Source of the DNA: Nitrospirota bacterium
Lineage (GTDB): Bacteria > Nitrospirota > UBA9217
Length of the DNA stretch: 64,000 nt
Assembly: GCA_041476485.1 (NCBI GenBank)
Contig: JBGOTO010000001.1
Location: forward strand, 770-64,769
Direction of reading: 5' to 3'
Part shown: positions 16,681-50,776 of the stretch, piece by piece
Layout of the letters: each line of letters starts with the position of its first letter
Numbering within the stretch: the first letter of the stretch is position 1
Position numbers and translations under genes: made by a program
Notes under the pieces: generated by a model
What the model saw: the letters and a program-made list of their open reading frames with translations, nothing else
Database searches by the model: none
What the model was told of the DNA's origin: nothing

Positions 16681-16734
16681 CGATTTCGGATTGTAGATTA
16701 CCGATTGCGGATTGAAATGGCGAGGGGTAGTGAA

Positions 16735-31527: not shown

Positions 31528-34500
31528 TTATACTTTAGTTGTCAGTTCGAGCCGGTTGCTGTCGAGGAAGAGAAGATAGCCTTCGACACTCGTGAGGCCG
31601 AACATTTCCTTTACGGCCTCGCAGTAAATCCGGATTTGGGGAAGGTAATGAGCGCTCCACTCCCTGAGCGCCGCGTCGTTTTCTATGCGAATGGCCTTGT
31701 AATCGACGACAGAGCCCGAGTTTCCCTTGATCACCACGCGGTCGATTTTGCCGCTCACGAGCGACCTGCCTTTTTTATACAGGAACGGCAGCTCGGAGTA
31801 AGAATCTTCGCGGCGCTCGAAGATCCAGGCCAAATCGTTCCTGGCCGTGACCGATTGCAAGACAGATCCGATATCGTCGAGGAGCAATCGCTTCGCGTCG
31901 CTCGTGAGCATGGTTATATCGGGATATTCCATAATAATCCGGTCGAGATCGTAGTTCCCCGTTTTTGTAAACTCTTCGAGACATCGATGAAGTATGCTTC
32001 CGCGCGTGAGCGGGGAGGCCCGTCCGGAGTCGGTCTGGGGCGGGAAAATTTCGAGTGGCGCCTCCTTCTTCTGCTCGATGAAGTCGGTCACCCGTTTCCA
32101 TTCAGGCGCTTCGGACAAGGGGAGCGGAGAGAGGTTCTCTATAACAGCAGTTACCTCTATTGCCTCCTCACTCGTCCGTTGCTGAACGGCCTGTTGTTCG
32201 CTTGTTGTATCCACCGTTGTGAACTGCGCCTGCCAGTCAGGATAAGCATAGTGAATGACGGTTGCTCCGTCATCCCCGCTTTTGTTTTGATCAAGCCGCA
32301 GGGCTTGATGCAGAAAGTCCAGCCAGGTGTTCGGCCTTACCGGCGCCTTGCCGCTTGCGAGCGTGCCGAGCATGATGAGATGGTCCCGCGCCCGCGTCAT
32401 GGCCACGTACAAGAGCCGCTGGTGCTCGCGCCTGAGTTCCTCCTGTTCGCCGTGCTCGCCTTTCCACAGGTCTTCATACACGGGATTGTCCGAATCCCTG
32501 ATCGCCATGCGCCTTGTGCCGTTTGTTTCCTCGATCAGCGCTTCCGGGCCCGCGGCCAAAGACCGCGCGGACTGGTTCATGCCCGGCAAAAACATGACGG
32601 GATATTCCAACCCCTTTGCCTTGTGCACGGTCATGATGCTCACGGACCCCTGGAATCCGGGCAAATTCATGTCCGACGTGGCTTCGCGCTGCTCGGTCCG
32701 GCGGATGTTCTTGATCCATTCGACAAAATCCTGGAGCGTGGTGTAACCCCGGCGGTCGAACTCGCGCGCGGTGTCGAGCAGTTTGTCGATATTGAAGATC
32801 GCCTGCGGATTATGTCTGCCGAACCGGACGTACGCGCCGGTTTCTTTCACGATCCGGTGAATGAGGCCGGAAAGCGGCTCAAGCCGTGCGATGCCCCTCC
32901 AGCCTTCCAGCATGTTTCCGATTTGAGGCCTTCGGCTTTTGAGGGCGTCTGCCAGGCTCCTATCGGCCTGGATGAGGTCGAAGAGGTCCTTGTCCGTAAG
33001 GCCGAACAGCCAGGACTTGAGCGCCGAGGCGAGGGCGAGATTATCGTCCTTGTTCCAGAGAAAGAAAAGAATGTTGATGAGCGCCTGAATCTCGTCTTCT
33101 TCGTAAAAGCCGATGCCGCCGACCACGCGATAGGGGATGCCCCGTGCCTGGAGCGCGGTCTCGTACTCTTTGAGCCGCGTGCGAGACTGGATGAGGACGG
33201 CGCAGTCTCCGTATTCCACTGGGCGCGCATGCAGGCCGGATATTGCTTCTCCGGTCCGGTCATACACAACGGTCCCGTTATCGATCAGCGATTGTATCTC
33301 GCGGGCAAGCACATCCGCTTCGCTCGGGCGGGATGACTGCTCCTCTGCGCGGCCCGGCGAAAGTTCGATGAGCCGCACGCTCCCTGTGTGCTGTGTGCGG
33401 TCGACTTCGGAGGGTTGATATGCTTCTTCCCAGAGCGCGGAGAATACCCGGTTCACGGTCTCGATGACCGCGGGTGTCGAACGGAAATTTTTGTCCAGGG
33501 TCAGGACCTCGCGCGATGCGGGTGGAATGTTTTTTTTCATCCGTTCACGGATGCCGTGAATCAAACGATAGTTCGCTTCGCGGAAGCGGTATATGGATTG
33601 CTTTTCATCGCCGACCACGAACAGGGTCGGAGGCATGGGCTTGTCCGCCCCCTGTCCGGAAAAGATCTCTTCGGTCAGTTTCTTCAAAATGGCCCACTGG
33701 ATGTCGCTGGTGTCCTGGAACTCGTCCACGAGGAAGTGGAGGATCTTGCGGTCGAGCCAGTAGAGTATGTCCGGCGATTCCATGCTTTGGAGCAGGCGAT
33801 AGGCATAAATCTCGAGGTCGTCGAAGTCCGCCAGGCCTTCCCTGAGCTTTGATTCCCGGTATCGTTCTTCCGCGCGAAGGTAGAGCCTGAGCAGGCTCAC
33901 GCTCTCAAGGCCTGCGCGGGCGCGCAGATGCGTATTCTTGAGCCGGTACAGCAGTTCTTGAATTTTAAAAAAGAGGGTTTCGTATTCCTTCCGGTTGTTT
34001 TTTGTCTTGAATGCCTTGAGCGTGATCTTCGGACTCTTGCGCGGCGTGCCTTCCACGGTGAAGTAGATCGGGAAGAGCAGGGTTGCTGTTTTGTATGCCG
34101 GGCCGCCGGCTTCTGCTTCCGCGAGGACGAGATGTTTTTGGCCCTTGCTGTCCAAATAGTTGTCTCCCTCGGACTTGAGCAGGTGTTCCATCTGTCGGAA
34201 TGAGGCGACCCATTCAGCGCTTGCGATAAGTGTTTTTATCTCGATTTCCGCGGCATCAATCTCCATGCCGCGACGGATTGATTGTACCAGGCCTTCCGGA
34301 CCGCCCGCGTCGATCTCCATGCGCTTGAGCCGGCTCCTGATTGAGAGCAGGAACTCCGTGATGGATATGAGTCTGTCTACGGGAACGTCTTGAAGCGGCT
34401 GCATGAGCTCCGGCACGCGGTCGGACTCCTCGATCGCGCTTTCAATGGCCAGTTGGATTTTATATGCCTGGTCCCGGGAATCGAGCACCCCGAAGTCCGG

Positions 34501-34863
34501 CGGCAGCCCGGCCTCGAGCGGGTAGCGTTTTAAAAGATTCATGCAGAAGGAGTGGATCGTCGAGATACGCAGGTCCTGCCTGCCGCGGATGATCTTCTTG
34601 AGCATGGCTTCGGGCAGGTCGCGCAAAACGCGCTCTTTGATCTCCGCGGCGGCCTTGTCCGTAAACGTGATGGCCACCGCCTGGTCGATGTTGAGTCCGC
34701 GTTTTTCGAGCGCTTCGAGAAGGGCGAGGTAACGGTCCTTGAGCGCGCGGGTCTTCCCCGATCCTGCCGAGGCCGAAAGATGCACGGACTTGGCGGTGTC
34801 GGCGGCTTTCTGCATGGTTTGGTTTTTGATCATAGGAATTATTGCAGGGGCGTATGGCAACAC
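31528..34863 (-). CDS. addA: ATP-dependent helicase/nuclease subunit A (UvrD-like helicase + C-terminal RecB-family nuclease)
   Basis: Walker A SASAGSGKTRAL, UvrD helicase motifs, and C-terminal nuclease motif GKIDRVV...VDYKA. Confidence 0.85.
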   Translation of the reverse strand: MLPYAPAIIPMIKNQTMQKAADTAKSVHLSASAGSGKTRALKDRYLALLEALEKRGLNIDQAVAITFTDKAAAEIKERVLRDLPEAMLKKIIRGRQDLRISTIHSFCMNLLKRYPLEAGLPPDFGVLDSRDQAYKIQLAIESAIEESDRVPELMQPLQDVPVDRLISITEFLLSIRSRLKRMEIDAGGPEGLVQSIRRGMEIDAAEIEIKTLIASAEWVASFRQMEHLLKSEGDNYLDSKGQKHLVLAEAEAGGPAYKTATLLFPIYFTVEGTPRKSPKITLKAFKTKNNRKEYETLFFKIQELLYRLKNTHLRARAGLESVSLLRLYLRAEERYRESKLREGLADFDDLEIYAYRLLQSMESPDILYWLDRKILHFLVDEFQDTSDIQWAILKKLTEEIFSGQGADKPMPPTLFVVGDEKQSIYRFREANYRLIHGIRERMKKNIPPASREVLTLDKNFRSTPAVIETVNRVFSALWEEAYQPSEVDRTQHTGSVRLIELSPGRAEEQSSRPSEADVLAREIQSLIDNGTVVYDRTGEAISGLHARPVEYGDCAVLIQSRTRLKEYETALQARGIPYRVVGGIGFYEEDEIQALINILFFLWNKDDNLALASALKSWLFGLTDKDLFDLIQADRSLADALKSRRPQIGNMLEGWRGIARLEPLSGLIHRIVKETGAYVRFGRHNPQAIFNIDKLLDTAREFDRRGYTTLQDFVEWIKNIRRTEQREATSDMNLPGFQGSVSIMTVHKAKGLEYPVMFLPGMNQSARSLAAGPEALIEETNGTRRMAIRDSDNPVYEDLWKGEHGEQEELRREHQRLLYVAMTRARDHLIMLGTLASGKAPVRPNTWLDFLHQALRLDQNKSGDDGATVIHYAYPDWQAQFTTVDTTSEQQAVQQRTSEEAIEVTAVIENLSPLPLSEAPEWKRVTDFIEQKKEAPLEIFPPQTDSGRASPLTRGSILHRCLEEFTKTGNYDLDRIIMEYPDITMLTSDAKRLLLDDIGSVLQSVTARNDLAWIFERREDSYSELPFLYKKGRSLVSGKIDRVVIKGNSGSVVDYKAIRIENDAALREWSAHYLPQIRIYCEAVKEMFGLTSVEGYLLFLDSNRLELTTKV

Positions 34864-34867
34864 GCCC

Positions 34868-37800
34868 CTACGGTTCTTCTTTCTCGCACATCATCTCATT
34901 GGGGCAATACCGGCACTTATTTTCATCCTGCGGTTTGGATTTAAAATCTCCCGCACGGATGCCCTCGACTGCCTTCCGGGCCTTGTCCATGCTCTGTTTC
35001 AAAATGGCTTCGAATTCTTCGGCGTTTTTCGGGCTTGCCGAGGGTTTTGACGCGGGCTGTTCTTCCATCTCGTCCTTGTCGTACAGGACAACGTCCCGCG
35101 CCCCTGCCCCTGTTTTTCCCGCCAGGTCATAGTAAGCGAGGCCGATGGATTTACACAGCGCCGGGCCTTTGTCCGATAACGCGGACAATGCCATGACGGC
35201 ATAGACCGGAAGCTGAAAAATATCCTGCACGAGCCCCATCTTCGGTAGCGGATACTTGCCGGTCTTATAATCCACGATGATGAAATTACCGTTCTCGTCC
35301 ACGTCGATGCGATCTATCTTGGCCGAGAGCTCCACTTCCTCCCCAGTGGAAAGGAGGAGCTTGAAGGACCCGATCTTCTGTTCCAGATACGCGGGCCGCA
35401 ATCCCTGCTTCCAGAATTCCTCCTCCGCATCGAGAAAACGCTCTGCCATGACATTTAGGAACAGGTCTTTCTCGCGCCGGTTACGGACCGTATCGGCTTC
35501 TTTGTCAAAAGAAGAGAGCGCGAGTTTCTTGAGCAGCGCCCGTGCTTCGTCGCGGTTCTCTTTGGTCACCGGGATGTTCCTTGCGAGGTAGAAATTGCGC
35601 AGGATCGCGTGGGCCTTGCTGCCGCGGGCGAGCGGGGAGATGTCCTCGGTCGGTTCTTCGAGCAATTCGATTCCGAGAACATGCTTGATATAGTAATCAT
35701 AGGGACAGTTGACATAGTCGTCCAGTTCCGTGACCCAGAACTCCTTCTTCTGCTGCGGTACGCGTGTGGACGTTGCATTCCCCGGCGTGTACTCGATTGC
35801 GGATTTGATCCCGGAGATGCCTTTGAGCTCCGCGCTCATGATCTTTTGTATGCCCGGAATATTCGGCGAAAGGCTGAGGGCCTTTGCCAACTCAGGTATG
35901 CTCCGGCTTTCTGCGACCTTCAGGCTGAACTGAATTCCCGACGTCTTCTCGATTCCCCGGTTCATGAGGCCGGCTTTCTTAAGCGGGGCAAGCTCTTCCA
36001 GGAACGGCGAGGGAACCACGGGCCGGTCTCCATCGTTCTCGGGCCAGGTGAGCGTAACTTTTTCAGTTGACAGCAAAAGACGGTAAAAATGGTATGCCGC
36101 GTTCAGGCGCGCCCGTTCGAGCGTACGCACGCCGAGCAATTCCAGCGTGGCCTCAGGCAGAAAGATGTTTTGCGGCAGGCGCTGCGGGAACGTTCCGTCC
36201 ATAAGCCCGCCGAGATAGACTTCTTTCCACGGGCGACCCATGCTTTCTTCCAGCCCCAGGATTTGCACGCCGCCCTCGTCTTCAGGCGGGACCTGGAACC
36301 GCGTGTGCATGAAGGTCTTCTTTAAGAGGAAGAGCCACTCATGAAAAGTATACCGATATTCGGGGAACAGTTTCCCGGACCGGGCCAGGGACGCAAGGGT
36401 TTCGTTCAGCTTTCGGTACGCCTGGAGGTTGATCTCGAGCGGACCGTGAATAAGCGCGACCCGGGCGCCGAGGCCTGACCAGGCAATGAGGCCGCCCAGA
36501 CGGTCCATCCAGAGGCTGAGCTGGGCGGTTTCCTGAGTTGAAAACGGTCCCAGTGCCGTGAACAGTTCGTTCAGCGGCGCGGAGAGGACGTCTGTTCCGC
36601 TTTCTCCCGCTGTGGAATATTTCAGGGCGGAGAGCAGCTTTTCCCTGCCGCCGGTCACGCGTTTATTGCGCATGAGGCGGTCGAGGGCCGGCGCGAGAGA
36701 CGGTCGATCGCCAAACTTGAGGAAAGGGGAGCTGAAAATCCTGAGAAGCGACGGGCCTGAGAAGCCGTCCTGACACGCGCGCAGCAGCGAGACGATTGAC
36801 GTGGTCACCGGCGACGCGCTGAGTTGCCTGCCGAGGGCGCGGTTGTAGGGAATGCCGTAGTCCGTGAATATTTCCTCCACGAGCGGACCGTACTCGTCGA
36901 GCGCGGGAAAGACGACCAGGATGGATTCGGCGGGGGCGCCCCGCTGCATCGATTTTTTCACCATCCCGGCGATCAGGGACGTCTCCTCGCGGCTGTTAAC
37001 GGCGGAGAGCAGGTTCATTTCCTTCGAGAAGGACGACGGGGCCGGGGCCTGCCGCACGACATCGTCAAAGGGCTTGTCCGAGAACAGCGCCCCGGCAAGG
37101 AACACCTCGTCAGGATGCGCCCCCGCGCCTTCCTGCACAGGCACGAGGCCCAACGATGAAATGAAGTCCTTCGTTATGCTGAGAGGGTGAAAGTCCTTCG
37201 CGCGATTCAGCAGTTCGGGCGAGGTCGCGTCGACCAGGTACGTGCAGTTTCCGCACGCGGCGACCTTTTTGAGGATGTCCGTTTCGAGCTTGCCCGCGTC
37301 CCGGATCCCGTCGATGACGATCTCACGGTACGGCGCGAGCCAGGAGGCGTCAAATTGTTCGCAAACAGAAGCGAGCATCCCGGCGGGATCGAGCAAGCCC
37401 TTTTTTTGCAGCATGGCTTGATACCCGCCGTATACATCAACGAGCAGCCTGACCTGGGGCTTGTCGGAAAATTCGGCGTGTTTGACAAGGGCAAGCAAGT
37501 CCTCGGGCGATACGCCTGCGGCGGAGAGTTGCTCGATCGTTTCTGCGAGCGCCGAGGAGAGCGACGGCGCGAGAAGGTCGGGGCTCTGGTTGAACAGGGC
37601 AGTGCCGGTCAGGCGTCCTTTGACGATGCCTTCGAGAAGGACCAGCCTGCTGTTTTCGTCGATGATCCGCGGGCCGCGCAGCCGCGCGTACAGTTTTTCA
37701 AAAAACTGGTGAAGGGTCTGGATCTCGGGCTGGACGAGGGCCGTCGCTCCGTGCAGCCGCTGGAGGGCCTCCAGAACAAGCCTGCCGTACATCCGCTTCA

Positions 37801-37957
37801 GACGCGAAGAGGGGACAAGGACCAGCACGTCACCGTAGAAAAACGGGGGTCGCGGACGGGAAGCGATAATCCCTTCAACGATGCGGACCTTCTCGTTCCA
37901 GCCCTCGTTTCCGTATGGCAGTGTCGCGCATTTCATGGCATGATGATTATGCCACAA
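34868..37957 (-). CDS. addB: helicase/nuclease subunit B (inactivated helicase-like + PD-(D/E)xK nuclease with 4Cys Fe-S staple)
   Basis: 1029 aa, directly upstream of addA; C-terminal YVNCPYDYY ... IVDYKTGK ... CRYCPNEMMC. Confidence 0.8.
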   Translation of the reverse strand: MWHNHHAMKCATLPYGNEGWNEKVRIVEGIIASRPRPPFFYGDVLVLVPSSRLKRMYGRLVLEALQRLHGATALVQPEIQTLHQFFEKLYARLRGPRIIDENSRLVLLEGIVKGRLTGTALFNQSPDLLAPSLSSALAETIEQLSAAGVSPEDLLALVKHAEFSDKPQVRLLVDVYGGYQAMLQKKGLLDPAGMLASVCEQFDASWLAPYREIVIDGIRDAGKLETDILKKVAACGNCTYLVDATSPELLNRAKDFHPLSITKDFISSLGLVPVQEGAGAHPDEVFLAGALFSDKPFDDVVRQAPAPSSFSKEMNLLSAVNSREETSLIAGMVKKSMQRGAPAESILVVFPALDEYGPLVEEIFTDYGIPYNRALGRQLSASPVTTSIVSLLRACQDGFSGPSLLRIFSSPFLKFGDRPSLAPALDRLMRNKRVTGGREKLLSALKYSTAGESGTDVLSAPLNELFTALGPFSTQETAQLSLWMDRLGGLIAWSGLGARVALIHGPLEINLQAYRKLNETLASLARSGKLFPEYRYTFHEWLFLLKKTFMHTRFQVPPEDEGGVQILGLEESMGRPWKEVYLGGLMDGTFPQRLPQNIFLPEATLELLGVRTLERARLNAAYHFYRLLLSTEKVTLTWPENDGDRPVVPSPFLEELAPLKKAGLMNRGIEKTSGIQFSLKVAESRSIPELAKALSLSPNIPGIQKIMSAELKGISGIKSAIEYTPGNATSTRVPQQKKEFWVTELDDYVNCPYDYYIKHVLGIELLEEPTEDISPLARGSKAHAILRNFYLARNIPVTKENRDEARALLKKLALSSFDKEADTVRNRREKDLFLNVMAERFLDAEEEFWKQGLRPAYLEQKIGSFKLLLSTGEEVELSAKIDRIDVDENGNFIIVDYKTGKYPLPKMGLVQDIFQLPVYAVMALSALSDKGPALCKSIGLAYYDLAGKTGAGARDVVLYDKDEMEEQPASKPSASPKNAEEFEAILKQSMDKARKAVEGIRAGDFKSKPQDENKCRYCPNEMMCEKEEP

Positions 37958-38031
37958 CTGAAAATTATTGACAATGGTTAGTGCATCGTTTATACTTATT
38001 TACAAATGGTGCGTTTTATAAGGAGGATGGA

Positions 38032-38355
38032 ATGGCAGAAGCGGTGACGAGCGCAACATGGGAACAAGAGGTCCTGAAGGCAAACGGCCTCGTGCTGGTG
38101 GATTTTTGGGCCGTCTGGTGCGGGCCCTGCAGGATGGTCGCTCCGATCGTTGACGAGCTATCCAAGGAATACGATGGCAAGCTCAAGGTCCTCAAGCTGA
38201 ACACGGACGAGAACCCCGACGTGGCCGGCAAGTACCGGATCATGGGCATCCCGACCCTTATGTTTTTCAAGGACGGCCAGACCGTAGACCAGGTGGTCGG
38301 CGCCGTGCCCAAGACCCAGCTCAAAGCCAAGGTGGATGCGCTGCTCGTAAAATAG
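38032..38355 (+). CDS. trxA: thioredoxin
   Basis: WCGPC active site; AGGAGGA RBS 5 nt upstream of ATG 38032. Confidence 0.9.
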
Positions 38356-38412
38356 CGGCCTTCACTTCTTCACGAGACGCGCGCTTCGGCGTATCCGTCT
38401 CTCAGCAGATCA

Positions 38413-38441
38413 CCTGCCCGCTTCGGCGGGCGGTTTTGTTT
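38413..38441 (+). terminator. rho-independent terminator after trxA
   Basis: Hairpin GCCCGC-TTCG-GCGGGC followed by TTTTGTTTT. Confidence 0.6.
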
Positions 38442-38512
38442 TCCCCTGTCGTTTTGTTGTGCCCTGTGTCGTTTTGTGGTACTCTGTATTGAAGCGCAAA
38501 GGAGATTTTTTG

Positions 38513-38998
38513 ATGTTCAGAAATATATTGATTGCGTCCGCCCTGGCAATGGCGCTCCTCTTCGGCTGCACTTCAAAGAGCGCCCAGTCCGACGCTGTGG
38601 CGGTTGATTTTACGCTTCAGGATATGAGCGGGAAAAACATCAAACTGTCCGATTATCGGGGCAAGGTGGTGCTCCTCGAATTCTGGGCCACCTGGTGTCC
38701 GCCGTGCCGCGCATCGATTCCGGGTATAGAAAAAATCCATCAATCGTACAAGGGCAAGGGACTGGTGGTGCTTGCGGTCTCCATGGACGAAGGCGAATGG
38801 AGTTCCGTTAAGACTTTTATGAAGGATTACGGCATCACCTATTCCGTGCTCAAAGGAACAGAGGATGTCGCGGTCCAATACCGGGTGCGCACGATCCCCC
38901 TGCTGTTCATTCTGGACAGGGAAGGGAAAATAGCCAAGCGGTATCCTGGGTTCGGCATCGAAGAAGACCTGGAGAACGACATCAAGGCCATCCTGTAG
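38513..38998 (+). CDS. TlpA/ResA-like periplasmic thiol-disulfide oxidoreductase (lipoprotein)
   Basis: Lipobox LLFGC, WCPPC active site, thioredoxin fold. Confidence 0.8.
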   Translation: MFRNILIASALAMALLFGCTSKSAQSDAVAVDFTLQDMSGKNIKLSDYRGKVVLLEFWATWCPPCRASIPGIEKIHQSYKGKGLVVLAVSMDEGEWSSVKTFMKDYGITYSVLKGTEDVAVQYRVRTIPLLFILDREGKIAKRYPGFGIEEDLENDIKAIL

Positions 38999-39049
38999 TG
39001 TAATCTCTTGTTCCAACCGGTTCTTCCGTGTTTTTTGGCGGTTTTTTAA

Positions 39050-39078
39050 TTGACAACCTCCATGCCTGTCGCTATAAT
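39050..39078 (+). promoter_or_regulatory. consensus sigma-70 promoter for tRNA-Gly
   Basis: TTGACA (39050..39055), 17-nt spacer, TATAAT (39073..39078); the tRNA starts 13 nt downstream. Confidence 0.65.
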
Positions 39079-39090
39079 AATCCACGAAAA

Positions 39091-39166
39091 GCGGGCGTAG
39101 CTCAGTTGGTAGAGTACAAGCTTCCCAAGCTTGGGGTCGCGGGTTCGAACCCCGTCGCCCGCTCCA
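39091..39166 (+). tRNA. tRNA-Gly (anticodon CCC), CCA-encoded
   Basis: Manual cloverleaf: acceptor GCGGGCG/CGCCCGC, D-arm GCTC-AGTTGGTA-GAGT, anticodon stem CAAGC/GCTTG with loop TTCCCAA, T-arm GCGGG-TTCGAAC-CCCGT, 3' CCA. Confidence 0.85.
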
Positions 39167-39196
39167 TTCAAACGTGTAACCATTCTGCTCAAACTG

Positions 39197-39226
39197 ACCC
39201 CTCCTGATGAACAGGCGGGGTTTTTT
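39197..39226 (+). terminator. terminator after the tRNA
   Basis: CCCCTCCTG ... CAGGCGGGG stem followed by TTTTTTG. Confidence 0.5.
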
Positions 39227-39242
39227 GTCTGGGAGGTGCAAT

Positions 39243-39905
39243 ATGTCAAAATCGTACGTTGCATTGTTCAACACCGTGATGGTTTCTATTATTCTTCTCG
39301 TTTCTCAGGTTGCCTGGGCCGAGGACAGGTTCGTGGTCGCTGATTTTTCTTCCGCAGCCGTCGGGGGCGGGGTACCGGCGGGTTGGGAACTCAAGGAGAA
39401 GTCCGGCAAGGCTGACTTCGCAATCGTCAAGGATGGCGATATCCCGGCCGCGCGGTTCCGGAGCAACGATACGTCTTTCTCACTCCAAAAAGAAGTAAAG
39501 GTCGACCTCAAACAGTACCCGGTGCTCACCTGGAAGTGGAAGGCGACGAAACTGCCGGTGGGCGGCGATTTTAGAAAATCAAAGACCGACGACCAGGCAG
39601 CACAGTTGTTCGTTGCGTTCACCAAGACCAAGTCGATCGTCTACATTTGGGACACGAGCGCGCCGCAGGACCTCATGGAGAGCACCTCCCCGGTGCCGTT
39701 CATGACGGTCAAGGTTGTCGTAGTACGGTCGGGACCCACGGAAACAGGGAAATGGATAAGCGAGAGCCGGAACGTATACGAGGATTACAAAAAAATGTAC
39801 GGATCGGAGCCGCCGGAAGTATCCGGGATACGTCTCCAGATCAACTCTCAGCACACCGGGACGTCGGCTGAAAGTTACTTTGCGGATGTGGCGTTCAAAA
39901 AATAG
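39243..39905 (+). CDS. DUF3047-family secreted protein
   Basis: Signal peptide MSKSYVALFNTVMVSIILLVSQVAWA and RBS GGGAGGTG. Family assignment is from the overall pattern (inference). Confidence 0.5.
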   Translation: MSKSYVALFNTVMVSIILLVSQVAWAEDRFVVADFSSAAVGGGVPAGWELKEKSGKADFAIVKDGDIPAARFRSNDTSFSLQKEVKVDLKQYPVLTWKWKATKLPVGGDFRKSKTDDQAAQLFVAFTKTKSIVYIWDTSAPQDLMESTSPVPFMTVKVVVVRSGPTETGKWISESRNVYEDYKKMYGSEPPEVSGIRLQINSQHTGTSAESYFADVAFKK

Positions 39906-39927
39906 TAGTCAGGAGTCAGTAGGAAGC

Positions 39928-40449
39928 ATGGGGAATAGAATCTATTTCATCACCGGCGGGGCACGTTCGGGAAAGTCCGCTTTTGCCGAGAAGCTTGCGG
40001 GCGAGCTCCAGGGTAAACGGGCCTACCTTGCAACGGCGCAGGCCCTCGATGCGGAGATGGTCGCACGCATCGAATTGCACCGGAAAAGGCGCGGAGGCGC
40101 ATGGGACACTTACGAGGAACCGCTGGCCATCGCCGAGCTGATGCGGAAACTCTCCGGCCGGTATGAAGTCCTGCTTCTTGACTGTCTTACTCTTTGGCTC
40201 AGCAACGTCATGGCCAGGACCGAGAAGAGCGACGAAATAGCCGGAAAACTCGACGAACTGACCACGGCGCTGAAGGATTTCAATGGGTCGTCTCTTGTGG
40301 TCACGAACGAAGTGGGGCTCGGCATCGTCCCGGACAATCCGCTTGCACGCCGTTTTAGGGATTTAGCCGGCATGATGAACCAGAAAGTGGCGCGAGTAGC
40401 GGATGAAGTGTATTTTACGGCTTCGGGGATACCGATGAGGATAAAATAG
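39928..40449 (+). CDS. cobU: adenosylcobinamide kinase / adenosylcobinamide-phosphate guanylyltransferase
   Basis: IYFITGGARSGKS P-loop, ~175 aa; the neighbours are cobT/cobS/cobC. Confidence 0.85.
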   Translation: MGNRIYFITGGARSGKSAFAEKLAGELQGKRAYLATAQALDAEMVARIELHRKRRGGAWDTYEEPLAIAELMRKLSGRYEVLLLDCLTLWLSNVMARTEKSDEIAGKLDELTTALKDFNGSSLVVTNEVGLGIVPDNPLARRFRDLAGMMNQKVARVADEVYFTASGIPMRIK

Positions 40450-40478
40450 GGTCAGGGGGCAGGGGTCAAGGGGCATGG
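40449..40478. repeat. G-rich left inverted repeat flanking the four-helix-bundle gene
   Basis: GGGTCAGGGGGCAGGGGTCAAGGGGCATGG abuts the start codon. Its reverse-complement partner lies at 40838..40863 (GTGGGTCAGGGGGCATGGGTCAAGGG when reverse-complemented). Confidence 0.7.
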
Positions 40479-40837
40479 AAAAAGATGAAAGGGGTTTCAG
40501 ACAGCTGAATGCCTGGCAAAAGGCCTATGAACTGACCTTGGAAATTTATCAGCTTGCCAAAGCATTTCCAAAGAGCGAAGCATACGGGCTAACCTCACAA
40601 CTGCAGCGTGCCGTTGTGTTCGTACCGGCCAATATTGCAGAAGGTTACGAGCGTAACCACAGAAAGGAATACGTTCAATTTCTGTTCATTGCTAAAGGAT
40701 CGTTAGGTGAGGTTGAAACATACCTTCTGCTTGCAAAAGATTTTGGATACTTATCACAAGACGAATATGCAAGTATAGACGAAAAAAGGAAAACAACATC
40801 AAGGCTCTTAAAGGGTCTTATCAAGTCGTTAACTTGA
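40475..40837 (+). CDS. four-helix-bundle protein (23S rRNA intervening-sequence protein family)
   Basis: 120 aa; AWQKAYELTLEIYQL...LTSQLQRAVVFVPANIAEGYER...KGSLGEVETYLLLAKDFGY is the signature of this family. It is inserted between cobU and cobT. Confidence 0.8.
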   Translation: MEKDERGFRQLNAWQKAYELTLEIYQLAKAFPKSEAYGLTSQLQRAVVFVPANIAEGYERNHRKEYVQFLFIAKGSLGEVETYLLLAKDFGYLSQDEYASIDEKRKTTSRLLKGLIKSLT

Positions 40838-40863
40838 CCCTTGACCCATGCCCCCTGACCCAC
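40838..40863. repeat. G-rich right inverted repeat (C-rich on + strand) flanking the four-helix-bundle gene
   Basis: CCCTTGACCCATGCCCCCTGACCCAC begins 1 nt after the stop codon. Confidence 0.7.
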
Positions 40864-40873
40864 TAAACATAAT

Positions 40874-41968
40874 TTGCAGAAAAAGGAGAAAACAGTGAAC
40901 AAACTCAAGGAAATTCTCGATACTATTCAGCCCGTCGACCAGTCTCGCTCGAACACGGTCCAGGCGCAGCTTGACAACCTAACGAAGCCGCAGGGGAGCC
41001 TCGGCCGCCTGGAGGAGCTTGCGAAAAAATATTGCCTGATCACGGGCAAGGACAAGCCGACGATCAGGAACAAGATCATTTTTACCTTTGCCGGCGACCA
41101 CGGCGTCACGGAAGAGGGCGTGAGCGCATTTCCCAGGGAGGTGACGCCGCAGATGGTGTTCAATTTCCTGCGCGGCGGCGCGGGAGTGAACGTGCTCGCG
41201 AAGCACACGGGCGCCAGGGTGATCGTGGTGGACATGGGCGTTGATTACGAATTCGAGCCAACGGACGGGCTCGAGATCAGAAAAATAGCCCGCGGCACGA
41301 AGAACATGACCAAGGGTCCGGCCATGACCCGCGAAGAAGCGGAGCGCGCGGTTCTCGCCGGGATCGAACTGGTGGAAAAATATAAGAACGGGCTCGACCT
41401 CCTCGGGACCGGGGACATGGGTATCGGGAACACGACGCCGTCCTCGGCGATCGTATCAGTCATCACGGGAACGGACCCGGAAAAAGTGACTGGACGAGGC
41501 ACCGGCATCGACGAGCAGTCATTAAAGAACAAGGTGGCGATCATTAAAAAAGCGATTGCGGTGAACAAGCCTGATCCCAAGGATGCCCTCGACGTGCTTG
41601 CCAAGGTGGGCGGGTATGAGATCGCCGGGATCGCCGGACTCGTGCTCGGGGCGGCGCTCTACAGGATTCCTGTGGTGATCGATGGGTTCATCTCGACCGC
41701 GGGCGCGCTCATCGCTGCGGAATTGAATCCCCTGTGCAAGGGCTACATGATCGCAGCGCACCAGTCGGTCGAGATCGGCCACCGGAAGATGCTCGAACAT
41801 ATGGAGCAGATACCGCTCCTGGACCTCAATCTCCGGCTGGGAGAGGGCACGGGCGCGGCGCTCGGCATGTCGCTCGTCGAGGCGGGCGTGAAGATCCTCG
41901 GCGAGATGGCGACGTTTGCAGCCGCGGGAGTCGCGGAAGGCAACGAGGCTGAGAAAGTGAGAAATTAA
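40874..41968 (+). CDS. cobT: nicotinate-nucleotide--dimethylbenzimidazole phosphoribosyltransferase
   Basis: CobT signature GDMGIGNTT...GLVLGAAL...[10 protein letters not shown]. Confidence 0.9.
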
Positions 41969-42049
41969 GAAGGTGGAAAGGTAGGAGGGCAAGAAGGTAG
42001 GAAAATGGGAAGGTAAGAAGGTAGGCAAAGAGAGGAAAAGACGGCAGGC

Positions 42050-42820
42050 ATGATTCGAAATTTTATCAACGCGCTCCAGTTTCTGACGATCGTGACCGTA
42101 AGCAAAAAGCACAGGATCGAGGAAGGAGACCTGGCGAAATCCATGGTCTATTTCCCGGTGATCGGCTTTCTGATCGGGCTGCTGCTGGTCTATGCGGACA
42201 AGGCGTTTGCGCTGATCGTCCTGCCCCAGACCGTTGCCACGTTCCTGCTCGTCATCATCTCCGTTTTGATAACGCGCGCCCTGCACATCGACGGCCTGGC
42301 AGACACGCTCGACGGATTGATGGGCGGCCATGACCATTCTTCCCGGCTTGCCATCATGAAAGACAGCAGGCTCGGGACCGCGGGAGCGCTCGGCATCGTC
42401 TTTGTCCTGTTCATGAAATACCTTTGCCTCAATACCCTCGCTGAAAGCGACAGGAACGCCGCGCTGTTGACCGCGCCGATGCTCGCCCGCTGGTCGCAGA
42501 CGCTCATGGCGTTCAAGGCGGACTACGGCCGTGACGAGGGAATGGGCAGGGCGTTTGTCGGGCATCTCCGGGTCGGCGGTTTTGCTGCCGCCACCGTTGT
42601 CGCCGTGGCGCTGTTGGGATTCGTGGTCCTGCGGCTGGACCCGCGCTCCGTGGCCCTTTTCTTCGGCCTGCTCCTCGGCATCGCGCTGCTCACGCTCATC
42701 GGACGCTGGCGCCTTGTCCGCAAACTCGGCGGGGTGACCGGCGACGCGATCGGCGCCGTGAGCGAACTGAACGAGGTCCTGGTGCTCCTCATTTTTGTTA
42801 TTTTCTCGGATGGAAGCTAG
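42050..42820 (+). CDS. cobS: adenosylcobinamide-GDP ribazoletransferase (cobalamin synthase)
   Basis: CobS-family 6-TM protein, with HIDGLADTLDG and GVTGDAIGA motifs. Confidence 0.9.
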   Translation: MIRNFINALQFLTIVTVSKKHRIEEGDLAKSMVYFPVIGFLIGLLLVYADKAFALIVLPQTVATFLLVIISVLITRALHIDGLADTLDGLMGGHDHSSRLAIMKDSRLGTAGALGIVFVLFMKYLCLNTLAESDRNAALLTAPMLARWSQTLMAFKADYGRDEGMGRAFVGHLRVGGFAAATVVAVALLGFVVLRLDPRSVALFFGLLLGIALLTLIGRWRLVRKLGGVTGDAIGAVSELNEVLVLLIFVIFSDGS

Positions 42821-42824
42821 TCCT

Positions 42825-43421
42825 ATGCCTACGAGAGTTTATCTCATGCGCCACGGCGAGGTGGCGGATGACGGAAAGAAACGCTACAACGGCCACATCG
42901 ACCTCGACATCACGCAAAACGGGATAGATCAGATGCGACGTCTTGCCGGCATGCTTGCGGGGAAGAACATCACGGCTGTCTATTCGAGCGATCTCATCCG
43001 GTCGGTCAAAGGCGCGGGGATCATTGCGGAACGGATCGGACTTCCCTTTTCGCCCCGGCGCGAGCTGCGGGAGCGGAGCGTGGGGGCGTGGGAAGGGCTC
43101 ACGGCCGAGGAGATCAAGGCCCGCTTTCCGGAGGAATATACGACGTGGCGTACGGATCTGCTCAGCTACCGTCCGCCCGGCGGCGAATGCCTGCTCGACG
43201 TGAGGGACCGGATCCTGCCGGTATTCAAGGGCCTGGTGACCGCGCATTCCGGCGGTGAGCTCGCGATGCTTTTGCACGGCGGCGTGAACAGGCTCATTCT
43301 TGGCGATGCCCTCGGCATGGACCCACTGAACGTTTTTAGGATAGACCAGACGTACGGCGCTCTCAACATTATCGATTACTACGACGACGGAATGGCCGTG
43401 GTCAGGCTTCTGAACGGGTAG
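42825..43421 (+). CDS. cobC: alpha-ribazole phosphatase (histidine phosphatase family)
   Basis: LMRHGE catalytic motif at the N-terminus; cob operon context. Confidence 0.8.
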   Translation: MPTRVYLMRHGEVADDGKKRYNGHIDLDITQNGIDQMRRLAGMLAGKNITAVYSSDLIRSVKGAGIIAERIGLPFSPRRELRERSVGAWEGLTAEEIKARFPEEYTTWRTDLLSYRPPGGECLLDVRDRILPVFKGLVTAHSGGELAMLLHGGVNRLILGDALGMDPLNVFRIDQTYGALNIIDYYDDGMAVVRLLNG

Positions 43422-43479
43422 GACCCGACTTTCCCTGAAACTTCTTGAGTATTCTCATCATATCTGATAGTCTATTGTT

Positions 43480-43683
43480 ATGAAGTCAGTAATGGACATA
43501 GCAAAAGAGGAAGAGCGGAAAGAGTTCCTCAAGCGTTCCCCGCTTGAGAGGATGGAAGTCATGCACGATTTTCTGTTCCAGGTCATCGCCCTAAAAGCGC
43601 GAGGGGAAAGAGTCCCTGAATATGAGATCTATACGAGATACCTTAGAGACAATCCGAGACATTACGAACGCTCTTCCCGTTAA
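43480..43683 (+). CDS. small ORF overlapping (different frame) the downstream NTase gene; possible frameshifted N-terminus
   Basis: 67 aa; overlaps 43622..43683 of the next ORF in another frame. Confidence 0.3.
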   Translation: MKSVMDIAKEEERKEFLKRSPLERMEVMHDFLFQVIALKARGERVPEYEIYTRYLRDNPRHYERSSR

Positions 43684-44230
43684 AGTCACTATCGTTCTTA
43701 CCGGCGGATATGCCGTAATCGCGCACGGCGTCGAACGAACGACCCTTGACCTTGATTTTTGCGTCTACTCCGACCTTATCGAAACCGCCGACACTGCCGC
43801 ATTTTTCGATGTTCTGAAAAAAAATCTCCCCAAAAGATATGAAGCAGAACTGAGGCAAGGCAGCAAAATCCCCGATGATCCTTTCAAGCATGACCTCATC
43901 CGTATTATTGACAATCAAAAAGAGTTTTTGAGAATCGACTTGCTGATAGCCCGCTATAAATGGGAGCTGGAGGGCATGGAGCTGGCCGTGCATCTTAAAG
44001 ACATTCCCTTGCCCGTCCTGAGCAAGCCGTACCTCGTTGCCATGAAGCTGCAAGCCACGGCGTACAAGGACTACCAGGATGTCGTGACCCTGTTTGACCT
44101 CATGACCGAAGAAGAAAAAGCAAAGACGCGGGAGCTTGCAAAGCGGACCCACAGGGACAAAAAGCTTGACCGGATTCTTTCCCCGCCGCCCGAAGAAGAA
44201 GTGCGGGAAATGCCGGAGGAGTATTTATAG
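43622..44230 (+). CDS. Pol-beta-superfamily nucleotidyltransferase (AbiEii/MNT-like)
   Basis: TGGYAVIAHGVERTTLDLDF is a G-G-x13-D-x-D NTase motif, followed by a helical C-terminal region. Confidence 0.55.
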   Translation: MRSIRDTLETIRDITNALPVKVTIVLTGGYAVIAHGVERTTLDLDFCVYSDLIETADTAAFFDVLKKNLPKRYEAELRQGSKIPDDPFKHDLIRIIDNQKEFLRIDLLIARYKWELEGMELAVHLKDIPLPVLSKPYLVAMKLQATAYKDYQDVVTLFDLMTEEEKAKTRELAKRTHRDKKLDRILSPPPEEEVREMPEEYL

Positions 44231-44335
44231 ACGCTCTGCGAGCAGCACAGACTCCACATCATTCGTTTCTTCTTAGTCGTGTTCCACCCCAAAGTATCAT
44301 GGAATATCCTTTCTGACGGCGTCCGGCTTTTTGTC

Positions 44336-44460
44336 ATCAATGGCCTGCACGCACCCTGTGCGCGTCAGTCGCTCAAGGCCGGCGTGCCCGAGTGAGACGA
44401 GCTTTTCGGGAAACTCCTGGCCGGCCTTTTCTTGACGCGCGACGAAAGTTATGATTGAAT
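44336..44460 (+). promoter_or_regulatory. conserved ~125-nt upstream element, copy A (upstream of rtcB)
   Basis: Aligns with 61917..62040: atcaa.tgcct..gcacgc....tgtgcgcgtc...tcgctcaagg.c.g.gtgc...gtgaga...ttt.ggg.aa.tcctggc...cttgac...tatg.t.aat. Confidence 0.55.
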
Positions 44461-44511
44461 TCTAGTAGTAAGAGCAATTTGGCGCGTTCAGACGTATCCG
44501 GAGGGAGAACC

Positions 44512-45996
44512 ATGCCGGCGCCTGCGGGAAAAATAGAGTCAGGGAAGCCCGAATTTATCAAAATTTCGGATGTTATTTGGGATTTGCCCAGGAGCTTCAA
44601 ACACGGCATGAGGGTCCCCGCGCGGATTGTCGCAACGCGGAAGCTGATCGACGCCATGGACCTTCAGGTCTACGACCAGATCTCGAACGTCGCAACCCTG
44701 CCGGGCATACAGAAATTCGCCTTCTGCATGCCCGACGGTCACAGCGGCTACGGCTTTCCGATCGGCGGCGTCGCGGCCTTCGACGTGAACGAAGGCGGCG
44801 TGATATCGCCGGGCGGCATCGGGTTCGACATCAACTGCGGTATGCGGCTGGCGCTCACGAACCTGACCCGTGACGAGGTAATGCCGCAGGTGAAGACGCT
44901 GGTGGACAAGCTCTTCCGCCGGGTCCCGGCGGGCGTCGGCAGCAGGGGCTTCGTTCGATTATCAAAAGAAGAATTCCGGGACGAAGTCGCCGTCGAAGGC
45001 TCCGAGTGGGCGGTCCGGAAAGGCTACGGATGGAAGGAAGATCTGGAGAGGACCGAGCTCTCCGGCAGGGCGGATTGGGCGGACAACACGACGATATCTC
45101 CACGCTCTGTCGAACGGGGATTCAACCAGATCGGCACCCTCGGCTCGGGGAACCATTATCTAGAAATCCAATGGGTCAAACCCGAAAACATCATGGACGA
45201 AAAGCTGGCTGCACGATGGGGCATCTTTCCCGACCAGGTGGTAATCATGTTTCACTGCGGCTCCCGCGGTTTCGGCCATCAGATTGCTACGGACTACCTT
45301 ACCCTGTTCCTGTCCGTCATGGAGCGGAAGTACGGGATCAAGATCCTCGACCAAGAGCTTGCCAGCGCGCCGTTCTTGTCCCGCGAAGGCCAGGACTACT
45401 ACAAGGCCATGGGCTGCGCAGTGAACATGAGCTTTGCCAACCGGCAGGTGATCCTGCACCGGGTCCGGGAAGTCTTCTCCGAGCAGTTCAATAAAAGTCC
45501 CGAAGAACTCGGCATGCACATGGTGTTCGACATAGCCCATAATCGCGGGACCTTCGAAAAGCACGAGGTGGACGGTAAGATCAAAGAGCTGATTGTCCAC
45601 CGCAAAGGCGCCACCGGGTGCTACCATCCCGGCAGGGAAGAAATTCCGGAGCTCTATCGCGCGGACGGCTCGCCGGTCATCATCGGCGGTTCCATGGAAA
45701 CCGGGAGTTACCTGCTCGTCGGCGGACCGAACGCGAAAGACACCTTCTGCTCGACGGCGCACGGAAGCGGCCGGACCATGAGCAGGGCCAAGGCGAAGAG
45801 GATGATCAGGGGCTCGGAGCTCCTGGAAAAGCTCGAGGAGCGGGGCATCTACGTCAAATCCGCGAGCTATTCCGGCGCGGCGGAAGAGGCCGGGTTCGCC
45901 TATAAGGACATCGACGACGTGGTCGAAGCGGCGTCGCAGGCCGGGATCTCGCTGCCGGTGGTGAAGCTCGTTCCGCTCGGGAACGTGAAAGGGTGA
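44512..45996 (+). CDS. rtcB: RNA 3'-phosphate/5'-OH ligase RtcB
   Basis: CMPDGHSGYGFPIGGV, GFDINCGMRL, HNRG, HRKGAT are RtcB metal-binding/His-GMP motifs. RBS GGAGGGA precedes ATG 44512; the track ORF start at 44455 is a TTG inside the upstream element. Confidence 0.9.
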   Translation: MPAPAGKIESGKPEFIKISDVIWDLPRSFKHGMRVPARIVATRKLIDAMDLQVYDQISNVATLPGIQKFAFCMPDGHSGYGFPIGGVAAFDVNEGGVISPGGIGFDINCGMRLALTNLTRDEVMPQVKTLVDKLFRRVPAGVGSRGFVRLSKEEFRDEVAVEGSEWAVRKGYGWKEDLERTELSGRADWADNTTISPRSVERGFNQIGTLGSGNHYLEIQWVKPENIMDEKLAARWGIFPDQVVIMFHCGSRGFGHQIATDYLTLFLSVMERKYGIKILDQELASAPFLSREGQDYYKAMGCAVNMSFANRQVILHRVREVFSEQFNKSPEELGMHMVFDIAHNRGTFEKHEVDGKIKELIVHRKGATGCYHPGREEIPELYRADGSPVIIGGSMETGSYLLVGGPNAKDTFCSTAHGSGRTMSRAKAKRMIRGSELLEKLEERGIYVKSASYSGAAEEAGFAYKDIDDVVEAASQAGISLPVVKLVPLGNVKG

Positions 45997-45997
45997 C

Positions 45998-46429
45998 ATG
46001 CCGTACCGGTTCCTCGAAGATGTCGCTATCGCCGATGTCGCCTTCGAAGCCGAAGGGCGGGTCCTTCCGGAATTGTTCAAGGAGGCGGGCCTTGCGGTGA
46101 CGAACACGATGGTGCAGGACCTTTCGCAGATCGAGCACAAGATCGCAAAGAGGATCAAGGGCGCGGCGGAGAATATCGAGATGCTGCTGTTTCATTTTTT
46201 GCAGGACCTGATTTTCTACAAGGACGCGGACCTGCTTCTCTTTAGCGATTTTCATCTCACGATCGTCCAGCGGGAAGGCGAGTGGCGCCTCCATGGAACG
46301 GCCTATGGCGAAGAGATATCCCCTGACCGGCATGAACTTCTTGTCGACGTAAAGGCGGTGTCTCTCCATAATTATAAAGTCCGGAAAACGGCAAAGGGAT
46401 GGCAGGCGGAAGTCATCCTTGATGTGTGA
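45998..46429 (+). CDS. archease (RtcB activator)
   Basis: 143 aa, 1-nt gap after rtcB; matches the archease family pattern. Confidence 0.75.
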   Translation: MPYRFLEDVAIADVAFEAEGRVLPELFKEAGLAVTNTMVQDLSQIEHKIAKRIKGAAENIEMLLFHFLQDLIFYKDADLLLFSDFHLTIVQREGEWRLHGTAYGEEISPDRHELLVDVKAVSLHNYKVRKTAKGWQAEVILDV

Positions 46430-47911: not shown

Positions 47912-48539
47912 TTTTCGGTTCTATTTGATCACCGACCGGAAGCAGACGAAGGTGCCGGTTGCTGTTGCGGTCAGGCAAGCGCTTGAAGGCGGAGTTCGAT
48001 CTGTTCAGCTTCGTGAAAAAGATTTGCCGATCAGGGAGCTTCTTGCCCTGGCTTTTGAGCTTCGAAAGATTACCAGAGATTTCAACGCCAGGCTGTTCAT
48101 CAACGACCGCGTGGATGTCGCGGTGGCTGTTGACGCCGACGGCGTACACCTCGGTCACGAGAGCATGCCGGTGTCCGCCGTGCGTAAGATCGTAGGCAGG
48201 GATATGATGATCGGCGTGTCGACCCACAACGTGTACGAAGCGCGGGACGCAGAGGCAGGCGGCGCGGATTTCATTACTTTCGGGCCGATATTTTCTGTGC
48301 CGTCGAAAATTAAGCACGGCGCGCCGGTCGGGGTCGAGGCCATCAGGACGGTCAAGAAGCATGTTCGGATTCCTGTTTTCGCTCTCGGCGGTATAAAAAC
48401 TGATACGGTAATGCAGGTCCTGCAGGGCGGGGCCGACGGCATCGCGATGATATCGGCGGTCCTCGCGGCCCCTGATATAAAACAAGCGGCAGCGGATGTT
48501 GTCAGTAAAATCCGCGGTCAATACGAGGTGCAGCCATGA
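47901..48539 (+). CDS. thiE: thiamine-phosphate synthase
   Basis: FYLITD ... QLREK ... DGVHLGQ-like (ADGVHLGHE) ... ThiE motifs; TTG start with GGAGGGA RBS. Confidence 0.85.
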
Positions 48540-50712: not shown

Positions 50713-50776
50713 AACGGCAGGGTCAAGGGGCAAGCAGCAAGGGTATGGGTCCAGGGGCAAGGGGCAGGGGTCAGGC

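Follow-up and report, generated by a model that had tools for sequence, protein, structure and literature searches.

To our knowledge, the protein family PF05635 has had no assigned function since the open reading frames (ORFs) of rRNA intervening sequences (IVSs) were first described in the 1990s. ORF-bearing IVSs of 23S rRNA, as in Coxiella and Leptospira, are the closest described relatives of the element reported here. The IVS of Coxiella burnetii is a 428-nt segment of 23S rRNA with a 28-bp terminal stem, and its loop contains an ORF of the PF05635 family that is apparently unexpressed and decaying (PMC4990558). Two to three tandem heptamers (GACAGAT) and a degenerate one, in a copy number that varies among strains, lie directly before the ATG of this ORF, and RNase III excises the element in vitro, with a 5′ cut at the first repeat that removes the Shine-Dalgarno-like sequence (PMC4990558). 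According to a proposal by Ralph and McClelland, the IVS represents a mobile element, with an ORF that serves its mobility (cited in PMC4990558). Here, we analyzed a 64,000-nt stretch of DNA from a Nitrospirota bacterium (contig JBGOTO010000001.1 of assembly GCA_041476485.1, forward-strand positions 770 to 64,769; hereafter the window), in which a PF05635 gene sits between the cobalamin genes cobU and cobT and is enclosed by inverted arrays of heptamers. What is new is that an element of the rRNA-IVS type occurs outside rRNA and that heptamer-array arms around its gene are a family-wide rule.

The whole module spans 413 nt of the forward strand (40449-40861) and consists of a 5′ heptamer array, a four-helix-bundle ORF (40475-40837, forward strand) and an inverted 3′ heptamer array. 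The 5′ arm (40449-40475) is composed of the units GGGTCAG, GGGGCAG, GGGTCAA and GGGGCA, and the 3′ arm (40835-40861), on the same strand, of TGACCCT, TGACCCA, TGCCCCC and TGACCC; each arm is a run of four tandem heptamers of the type GGGKCAR with a period of 7, and the arms are arrays rather than terminal repeats of unique sequence. A repeat search placed the two 27-nt arms 359 nt apart and found them 93% complementary (25/27), with both mismatches being G.A, which agrees with the inverted repeats described around the gene in a first-pass annotation of the window. That annotation had positioned the repeats at the start codon and 1 nt after the stop codon. Contact with the start codon holds, as the 5′ arm starts with the final base of the cobU stop codon TAG (40449) and its last base is the A of the module's ATG (40475); at the other end the position has to be corrected, since the 3′ arm opens with the module's own TGA stop codon (40835-40837). 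The 5′ arm also qualifies as a G-quadruplex (G4) motif, defined as at least four runs of three or more G with loops of 1-7 nt. For the motif GGGKCARGGGKCA, the window contains 10 occurrences versus 0.75 expected; none of 100 shuffles reached 10, and all matches of the motif are confined to the two arms and a cargo-free array at 50719-50775. By profile search, the four-helix-bundle gene is present as a single copy in the 64-kb window. Profile matches give the local gene order as cobU (39880-40449, forward strand; PF02283, E 1.4e-61), the four-helix-bundle gene, cobT (40874-41968, forward strand; PF02277, E 4.7e-139), cobS and a His_Phos/CobC-type gene. Judging from spacing, the start of cobT is likely the GTG at 40895, which follows AAGGAG and lies 33 nt past the 3′ arm.

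The 120-aa product of the module's ORF belongs to the 23S rRNA IVS protein family, as first proposed for this gene between cobU and cobT: it matches PF05635 over residues 9-113 (E 1e-37, 129 bits against a cut-off of 33.8) and TIGR02436 with 124 bits against a cut-off of 24, and its neighbors are the PF02283 and PF02277 genes given above. It also matches XCC0516 of Xanthomonas campestris (PDB 2GSC), a homopentamer, with an E-value of 5e-22. The protein search returned an identical sequence (P0001), although an exact-match look-up of the protein gave nothing. The family is large, as a single-sequence search at E <= 1e-3 returned 23,286 clusters at 50% identity, and its proteins are mildly basic, with a median pI of 9.2. 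Avd, the accessory protein of diversity-generating retroelements, has the same fold superfamily as the window protein. Identity with Avd was ruled out, because the Avd profiles scored below their cut-offs (PF22296, 28.8 bits vs. 40; NF033474, 27 bits vs. 80) and no reverse transcriptase was found among the neighbors within ~9 kb on either side; no template/variable repeat pair was seen near the module either. The neighboring genes encode AddAB-like proteins, thioredoxin, AhpC, a tRNA, DUF3047, the cob products, AbiEii, RtcB and archease, with no integrase among them, and PADLOC gave no defense-system match. As for integron cassettes, the module has repeats at both ends instead of a single 3′ attC, and no integrase is nearby.

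The architecture seen in the window extends to the family. In a homologue scan with one genome per species, we collected 80 loci whose proteins were 38-72% identical to the window protein. Their hosts belong to more than a dozen phyla and include Nitrospirota, Nitrospinota, Zixibacteria, Omnitrophota, Cloacimonadota, Planctomycetota, Patescibacteria, Desulfobacterota (Syntrophaceae, Geobacter, Desulfacinum), Margulisbacteria/Saganbacteria, Acidobacteriota, Chloroflexota, Poribacteria, Alpha- and Gammaproteobacteria, Actinobacteriota, and Cyanobacteria. For the intact copies (n = 68, i.e., 67 loci and the window; >15 phyla), an inverted-repeat score was computed between the 110-nt flanks and compared with 100 shuffles and with randomly placed pseudo-genes in the same loci. 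The score was above all 100 shuffles in 59 of the 68 copies and above the 95th percentile of random positions in 62, with a median of 35 vs. 14. The best period was 7 in 57 upstream and 56 downstream flanks, and most of the remainder had a period of 8. Arrays with a period of 7, 8 or multiples thereof reached 8.27 per kb within 120 nt of the ORFs vs. 0.36 per kb elsewhere in the loci, a 23-fold difference. An inverted heptamer-array architecture is a hallmark of the PF05635 gene family across phyla, and the same kind of flanking repeats that the first-pass annotation had suggested looking for at other copies of the gene is found in 62 of 68 homologues and also in cyanobacterial plasmid copies. 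A full-text search of incomplete coverage found no literature linking PF05635 genes to flanking inverted heptamer arrays, so that prior knowledge of the link is possible; the exceptions were the description of the Coxiella IVS (PMC4990558) and one row of a Xanthomonas supplementary table (PMC4692102).

Among close homologues, the units are GGGTCAA, GGGGCAA or GTAGCAA irrespective of host phylum. Distant homologues have other units (GGGTATC, GGGTACA, TAGGGTCT, TCGGTGAA, GTTTCAA, AAGGTTA/AAGGCGA, GGCAGTA, GGGCCGA, GGGGTGT, and GTAGAAG), and the unit sequence shifts with protein divergence. Despite the change of unit, the 3′ array is the reverse complement of the 5′ array in every case. The order of variant units is mirrored across the arms as well, as in one locus (L001) with GGGTCAA-GTAGCAT-GTAGCAA on both sides. 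A 5′ arm matched its own 3′ arm with a score of 37.4, vs. 18.9 for the 3′ arms of other loci, and the preference persisted within the GGGKCAR type (39.0 vs. 31.2; permutation p < 1e-4). Copies on cyanobacterial plasmids (Calothrix, Nostoc, Geminocystis) follow the same plan, yet with other units, and a scan of one whole 50-kb plasmid bearing a module revealed almost no further arrays of that module's unit type. The sarcin-ricin motif of 23S rRNA was absent from all 175 loci fetched, indicating that all copies are non-rRNA; a contig of high coverage (L075) was not rRNA either. In the protein search, many homologues came from short contigs (1-3 kb), perhaps because assemblies break at the arrays. 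G4 formation was considered as a unifying principle of the arms and rejected, as the motif is present in only 27 of the 68 loci and unit types such as GTTTCAA, AAGGTTA, and TCGGTGAA cannot form one.

Several loci showed variations on this plan. An acidobacterial locus (L076) has two paralogous four-helix-bundle genes 1.2 kb apart (4986-5348 and 6604-6966), each within inverted octamer arrays, and the units differ between them (TCGGTGAA vs. TGGGTGAA). Cargo-free hairpins of the form array-loop-array are common near the genes, with three in L021, two each in L038 and L050, and others in L039, L018, and L040. Those of L021, a Geobacter metagenome-assembled genome, lie at 4107-4199, 7512-7592, and 9379-9461, within 5 kb of one module; they have three different heptamer unit types, and after one of them comes a T run, as in an intrinsic terminator. 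Two further loci hold modules in decay. At 8427-8589 of L064, intact inverted arrays surround only the first 25-30 codons of the gene, and at 4393-4682 of L022 they surround 230 nt of non-coding, hairpin-rich sequence.

At the cob site itself, the history of the module could be followed among relatives. The closest homologues (P0002, 93% identity; P0004 and P0007, 82%; P0005, 79%, on six contigs from different samples) have the synteny thioredoxin-AhpC-(DUF3047)-cobU-gene-cobT-cobS-cobC and occupy the same site as in the window. Orthologous cob operons (L161-L169) likewise have the gene at this position, together with its repeats, and the synteny around cobU in L162-L168 is that of the window. 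All same-site orthologues have G-rich arrays upstream and C-rich arrays downstream. The cob-resident gene evolves with an omega of ~0.08 (0.06-0.09), similar to that of cobT (0.04-0.06). L161 has the same two arm sequences as the window, whereas its ORF differs from that of the window at ~10% of positions and its spacer following the 3′ arm at 5 of 12. Arm complementarity in farther orthologues is 86% (L163), 74% (L162), and 76% (L164), and the number and order of units vary between orthologues.

No four-helix-bundle homologue was found in 80 metagenome loci of CobT relatives (59-92% identity), 67 of which contain a cobU homologue. Among the closest relatives with cobU immediately before cobT, this junction is hypervariable and measures from -6 to 141 nt, and in a CobT tree the gene-bearing lineages are interspersed with gene-free ones. 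Two gene-free loci (L088 and L097), sister to the gene-bearing L162, retain a remnant 5′ array, an ATG and ~10 codons alignable to the module (matched to N-termini by blastx at E 0.02), and in L092 the outermost units of both arms remain as a mini-hairpin. An empty site, proposed earlier as the object of a cobU-cobT comparison, was not what the relatives revealed: the gene-free ones keep deletion remnants, and the gene-bearing orthologues have the repeats. These relics argue that the module is an old resident that was lost repeatedly by internal deletion, and not a fresh insertion. In this Nitrospirota-like clade, the module is an old cob-operon resident under purifying selection. Flanks compared for a direct repeat (...GGATAAAATA before the 5′ arm and ACTAAACATA after the 3′ arm) revealed no target-site duplication in the window, and none was consistent across L161-L164; no transposase or integrase accompanies the module. 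Counts of GGGKCAR vs. GCGGAAT arrays in relatives' loci with and without the gene were uninformative. Other gene-free relatives (L082, L085, L089, L099, and L109) have solo arrays of GCGGAAT/GATTGCG at the same cobU-cobT junction, which suggests that the junction turns over between repeat types. At the next junction of the operon, the cobT-cobS spacer of the window (41969-42025) is filled by a purine-rich octamer array (GAAGGTAG, ~7 units); in relatives this junction is hypervariable in length (16-222 nt) and content, with similar purine-rich arrays in L082 and L163.

Homologues with 62-70% identity to the window protein occur in Cloacimonadota, Zixibacteria, Omnitrophota, Nitrospinota, Syntrophaceae, Geobacter, and Jettenia. 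They are as close as other Nitrospirota copies (63-71%) and share the unit type, indicating that gene and arrays travelled together between phyla. Spread between genomes has happened, to judge from this cross-phylum distribution, and recombination into pre-existing array hairpins is one possible route. No close relative of the gene was found in viral contigs, and the copies on plasmids are cyanobacterial and distant. The first-pass annotation had regarded the arrangement as a cassette, with the repeats hinting at how it moves. A self-contained unit with a horizontal past is indeed what the comparison supports, but a recent insertion is not, given orthologues at the same site under purifying selection. 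As a pointer to movement the repeats are so far of little help, since there is no target-site duplication, transposase or integrase and the arms vary in a way that classical terminal inverted repeats (TIRs) do not. The closest documented role for such arms is that of an RNase III stem in RNA (PMC4990558).

The likeness to the ORF-bearing rRNA IVS is considerable. In both cases, a PF05635 ORF occupies the loop of a long hairpin. The module and the Coxiella IVS both lie in a size range of ~400-450 nt (413 and 428 nt, respectively) and have a stem of ~27-28 bp, which falls within the ~20-30 bp of complementary termini that enclose IVSs of the S23p type, and both have tandem heptamers of variable number abutting the ATG and a Shine-Dalgarno-like sequence within the stem. 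Unlike an rRNA IVS, which interrupts helix 9, 25 or 45 of 23S rRNA, the module lies in the mRNA spacer between cobU and cobT of a cobalamin operon, and both of its arms consist entirely of heptamer arrays. Its ORF is under strong purifying selection, in contrast to that of Coxiella, and its cleavage by RNase III is a prediction. The arms look more like a stem for RNA processing than like the ends of a transposon. Based on this analogy, we give roughly even chances to the reading that the module is an IVS-type hairpin-ORF element that resides in mRNA and is probably processed at its stem. Lacking a promoter of its own, it would be transcribed by read-through from the host operon, and the G-rich 5′ arm would pair with the C-rich 3′ arm in the transcript to form a stem of ~23-27 bp. 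The closed stem would sequester the Shine-Dalgarno-like G runs, with the AUG just past its inner end, and by homology with the Coxiella IVS it would be a substrate for RNase III. Cleavage would cut cobU off from cobT-cobS-cobC, and the RNA of the ORF would be released or silenced. The geometry suggests that ribosomes stopping at the cobU stop codon or at that of the module could keep the stem from closing; translation would then compete with processing, and gain or loss of heptamers by slippage would tune the length of the stem.

Orientation is in keeping with transcription from the host operon. Among the 68 modules, 41 are co-directional with both neighbors at distances of <400 nt, mostly <100 nt, and 4 are antisense to both, in a count that rests on crude gene calls. 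Given the symmetry of the inverted arms, the bias is one of the ORF, and it indicates that the ORF is expressed via read-through. In the window, no promoter-like or terminator-like site was found in the module or between cobU and cobT. The nearest upstream promoter-like site (39050-39078, forward strand), TTGACA-17-TATAAT, agrees with the sigma-70 consensus at 12 of 12 positions, directly precedes a tRNA gene (39091-39163) and heads the DUF3047-cobU-...-cobC gene string; the site is a candidate source of a DUF3047-cobU-module-cobT read-through transcript. A search of 38000-44000 against Rfam returned the tRNA only, with nothing at the module, and no cobalamin riboswitch was detected in that interval. 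The 451-nt segment at 40430-40880 has a predicted folding energy of -149.7 kcal/mol (z -5.9 relative to shuffles). A terminal stem (13 + 10 bp) is predicted to close the whole ORF in both the minimum free energy (MFE) and centroid structures; it would bury the Shine-Dalgarno-like G runs and leave the AUG just beyond its inner end. The MFE structures of L162 and L164 have a shorter terminal stem.

Several observations weigh against an mRNA-resident IVS that is processed at its stem. Folds of the whole module are not unusually stable in L162 (z +0.25) and L164 (z -1.8), and the arm complementarity of these two orthologues is barely above that of shuffles. Arm mismatches comprise 52 G:T/T:G and 45 A:C/C:A pairs; without an excess of the G:U-compatible kind, nothing marks the pairing as acting in the RNA of the sense strand. 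Similarity of the arms could instead be kept up at the DNA level, by template switching between inverted repeats, rather than by selection for pairing. Finally, the ORF is decaying in Coxiella but strongly conserved in the window, which points to a protein function that the RNA model leaves unexplained.

Other readings assign the arrays a different part, and they and the processed-hairpin reading are not mutually exclusive. Repetitive extragenic palindromes (REPs) and their associated tyrosine transposases (RAYTs) offer a precedent, in which a single gene is flanked by inverted short repeats that are also dispersed as singlets or hairpin doublets, with the repeat type differing by gene lineage. 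By analogy, the four-helix-bundle pentamer would be a trans-acting binder, protector or propagator of heptamer arrays, the array-flanked gene would be the 'autonomous' copy, and solo arrays and empty hairpins would be targets or non-autonomous derivatives. This would give the protein a role, which the IVS-type model does not. It is consistent with the gene-free GGGKCAR-type array at 50719-50775, conserved in the relative L176, with the frequency of empty array hairpins near genes, with a unit type that tracks protein divergence and differs even between the paralogues of L076, and with the basic character of the proteins; the related Avd binds nucleic acid. A supplement to one report further lists a GGGAATC array that overlaps the start codon of XCC0516, the crystallized homologue in X. 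campestris (PMC4692102). However, the family is not known to have any catalytic or DNA-binding motif and binding is hypothetical, the commonest arrays of the window (GCGGAAT, 18 pattern matches) have no cognate gene in 64 kb, the 50-kb plasmid with a module is almost free of other arrays of its unit, and empty hairpins can also be explained as deletion relics such as those in L064 and L092. The module resembles REP/RAYT in having a single gene between inverted copies of a short repeat, but its protein is a 120-aa PF05635 helical bundle and not the Y1 (HUH) transposase of a REPtron, its repeats are tandem heptamer arrays and not palindromic REPs, and dispersal of cognate arrays is a supposition. 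We consider such a system unlikely here.

Tandem heptamers are also known as repeat families in their own right, the short tandemly repeated repetitive (STRR) sequences of cyanobacteria being one. Xanthomonas has 186 GGGAATC arrays, 70 of them in inverted pairs, that were interpreted as G-quadruplexes, and array 15 of the supplementary table is the one over the XCC0516 start codon (PMC4692102). Like the window gene, XCC0516 has a heptamer array that overlaps its start codon. In Geobacter metallireducens, paired hepta- or octanucleotide 'global regulator sites' were described, one of them between proB and proA (PMC2700814). Like the arms of the module, the arrays of these families are intergenic runs of ~4 x 7 nt, often in convergent inverted pairs and often within operons; unlike here, they are read as G-quadruplexes or regulator sites, with no link to PF05635 genes in the searched text of the two papers (PMC4692102, PMC2700814). 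A bolder version of the trans-acting model would make PF05635 proteins the missing partners of such families (STRR-like, Xanthomonas GGGAATC, Geobacter paired sites), each recognizing its own unit, with the bracketed gene as master copy, dispersed arrays and hairpins as targets or relics, and the rRNA IVS as a special landing site. We hold this to be rather unlikely.

It is quite improbable, in our view, that the module is a non-autonomous DNA transposon like a miniature inverted-repeat transposable element (MITE), whose arms are TIRs for a transposase encoded elsewhere and whose gene is a passenger. TIR transposons and integron cassettes do share compactness, inverted ends and internally deleted derivatives with the module, and its presence or absence at an orthologous site and the spread of close homologues across phyla would fit. 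But neither the window nor the orthologues show a target-site duplication, and the ends, instead of being an attC-type single site, are tandem arrays whose units differ in number and order even from one orthologue to the next. Moreover, where the module is absent from the cob site, a deletion with remnants is seen and not a clean empty site, the ORF is under strong purifying selection and biased toward the orientation of the host operon (41 vs. 4), and viral contigs contain no close relative. A purely local function, in which the arrays are simple-sequence repeats or G-quadruplexes that tune expression via Shine-Dalgarno spacing or 5′-UTR structure as slippage alters their unit number, and their symmetry is secondary, seems very doubtful. 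The 5′ arm of the window is a canonical G4 motif, GGGAATC repeats form G4 in vitro according to the report on Xanthomonas (PMC4692102), unit number varies between orthologues and between Coxiella strains, and a 7-nt repeat of Haemophilus influenzae is described as acting through an RNase III-targeted element in the 5′ UTR (PMC12721329). Yet the G4 motif is limited to the 27 loci noted above, many unit types being incapable of it, and the 3′ array and the matching of each arm to its own partner are left unexplained. Coincidence, finally, would mean that the genome seeds arrays into many junctions and that two came to lie inverted around a resident gene. The M23 peptidase gene of the window, described below, is bracketed by inverted GCGGAAT arrays that are absent in L174 and L175, and the cobU-cobT and cobT-cobS junctions of relatives have assorted arrays. 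Nevertheless, this reading is already disfavored and we give it next to no credence: the association is family- and phylum-wide (62/68; median score 35, vs. 14 at random positions), arrays occur in every orthologue at the cobU-cobT site, the arms abut the start and stop codons, and the 23-fold enrichment is at these very genes.

If nearly all members of the family are hairpin-ORF modules with heptamer arms, rRNA IVSs and free-standing copies would be one kind of element, and a concrete candidate ligand for the protein would be the heptamer array of its own family, in RNA or DNA form. Part of the puzzling intergenic heptamer arrays of bacteria could be deletion relics of such modules, and many operons may have an RNase III site built in, by which the genes upstream of it are uncoupled from those downstream. 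The generalization makes both the role of the IVS ORF family and the origin of bacterial heptamer arrays testable. We also infer that the arrays may be mistaken for CRISPR-like repeats.

Elsewhere in the window, the cargo-free array at 50719-50775 (forward strand) comprises ~8 heptamers of the GGGKCAR type without an inverted partner of that type. It begins directly after the stop codon of the M23 peptidase gene and separates it from thiD, where the first-pass annotation had noted a related G-rich array. The closest relative (L176) has a GGGGCAA/GTAGCAA array at the M23-thiD junction, L174 and L175 have none, and the sequence that follows in the window (50776-50840) gave no blastx match to a gene remnant. 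Arrays of the GCGGAAT type were found at six further junctions of the window, with 18 pattern matches vs. 3.6 expected. Two of these arrays (49838-49866 and 50799-50827), 29 nt long and 90% complementary, are inverted around the M23 peptidase gene, which lies between thiC (48536-49837) and thiD (50837-51598). The order thiC-M23-thiD is kept in L174 and L175, both without flanking GCGGAAT arrays, and L176 has a related array on the thiC side only. The M23 peptidase gene was considered as a second mobile cassette and rejected, as it is a conserved resident in these array-free relatives. It follows that arrays can colonize the junctions of a resident gene independently, and that a mobile cassette cannot be recognized by inverted arrays alone. 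The four-helix-bundle gene is set apart from the M23 gene by its family-wide association with arrays.

Further intergenic heptamer arrays of the GCGGAAT/GATTGCG/ATTTCGG type lie at 16674-16714, 22815-22882, 30214-30294, and 58772-58803. The second runs from a G-rich array through a T-rich loop to a C-rich array, and the third consists of two direct arrays around a palindrome-like core of 40 nt (CCCTGCAC...GTGCAGG). A 20-nt tandem repeat of ~2.3 copies (GTTTTGTTGTGCCCTCTGTC) is present at 38433-38487, upstream of the AhpC/redoxin-like gene. Downstream of the cob genes, a block at 43480-46429 between cobC and thiS opens with a small ORF (43480-43683) and contains the gene of an AbiEii-type nucleotidyltransferase toxin (43622-44230), followed by those of RtcB (44455-45996) and archease (45998-46429); since thiS comes directly after cobC in L162 and L163, the block appears to be an insertion. 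On the reverse strand, 31528-37957 encodes an AddA/AddB-like helicase-nuclease pair with UvrD helicase and PD-(D/E)XK domains.

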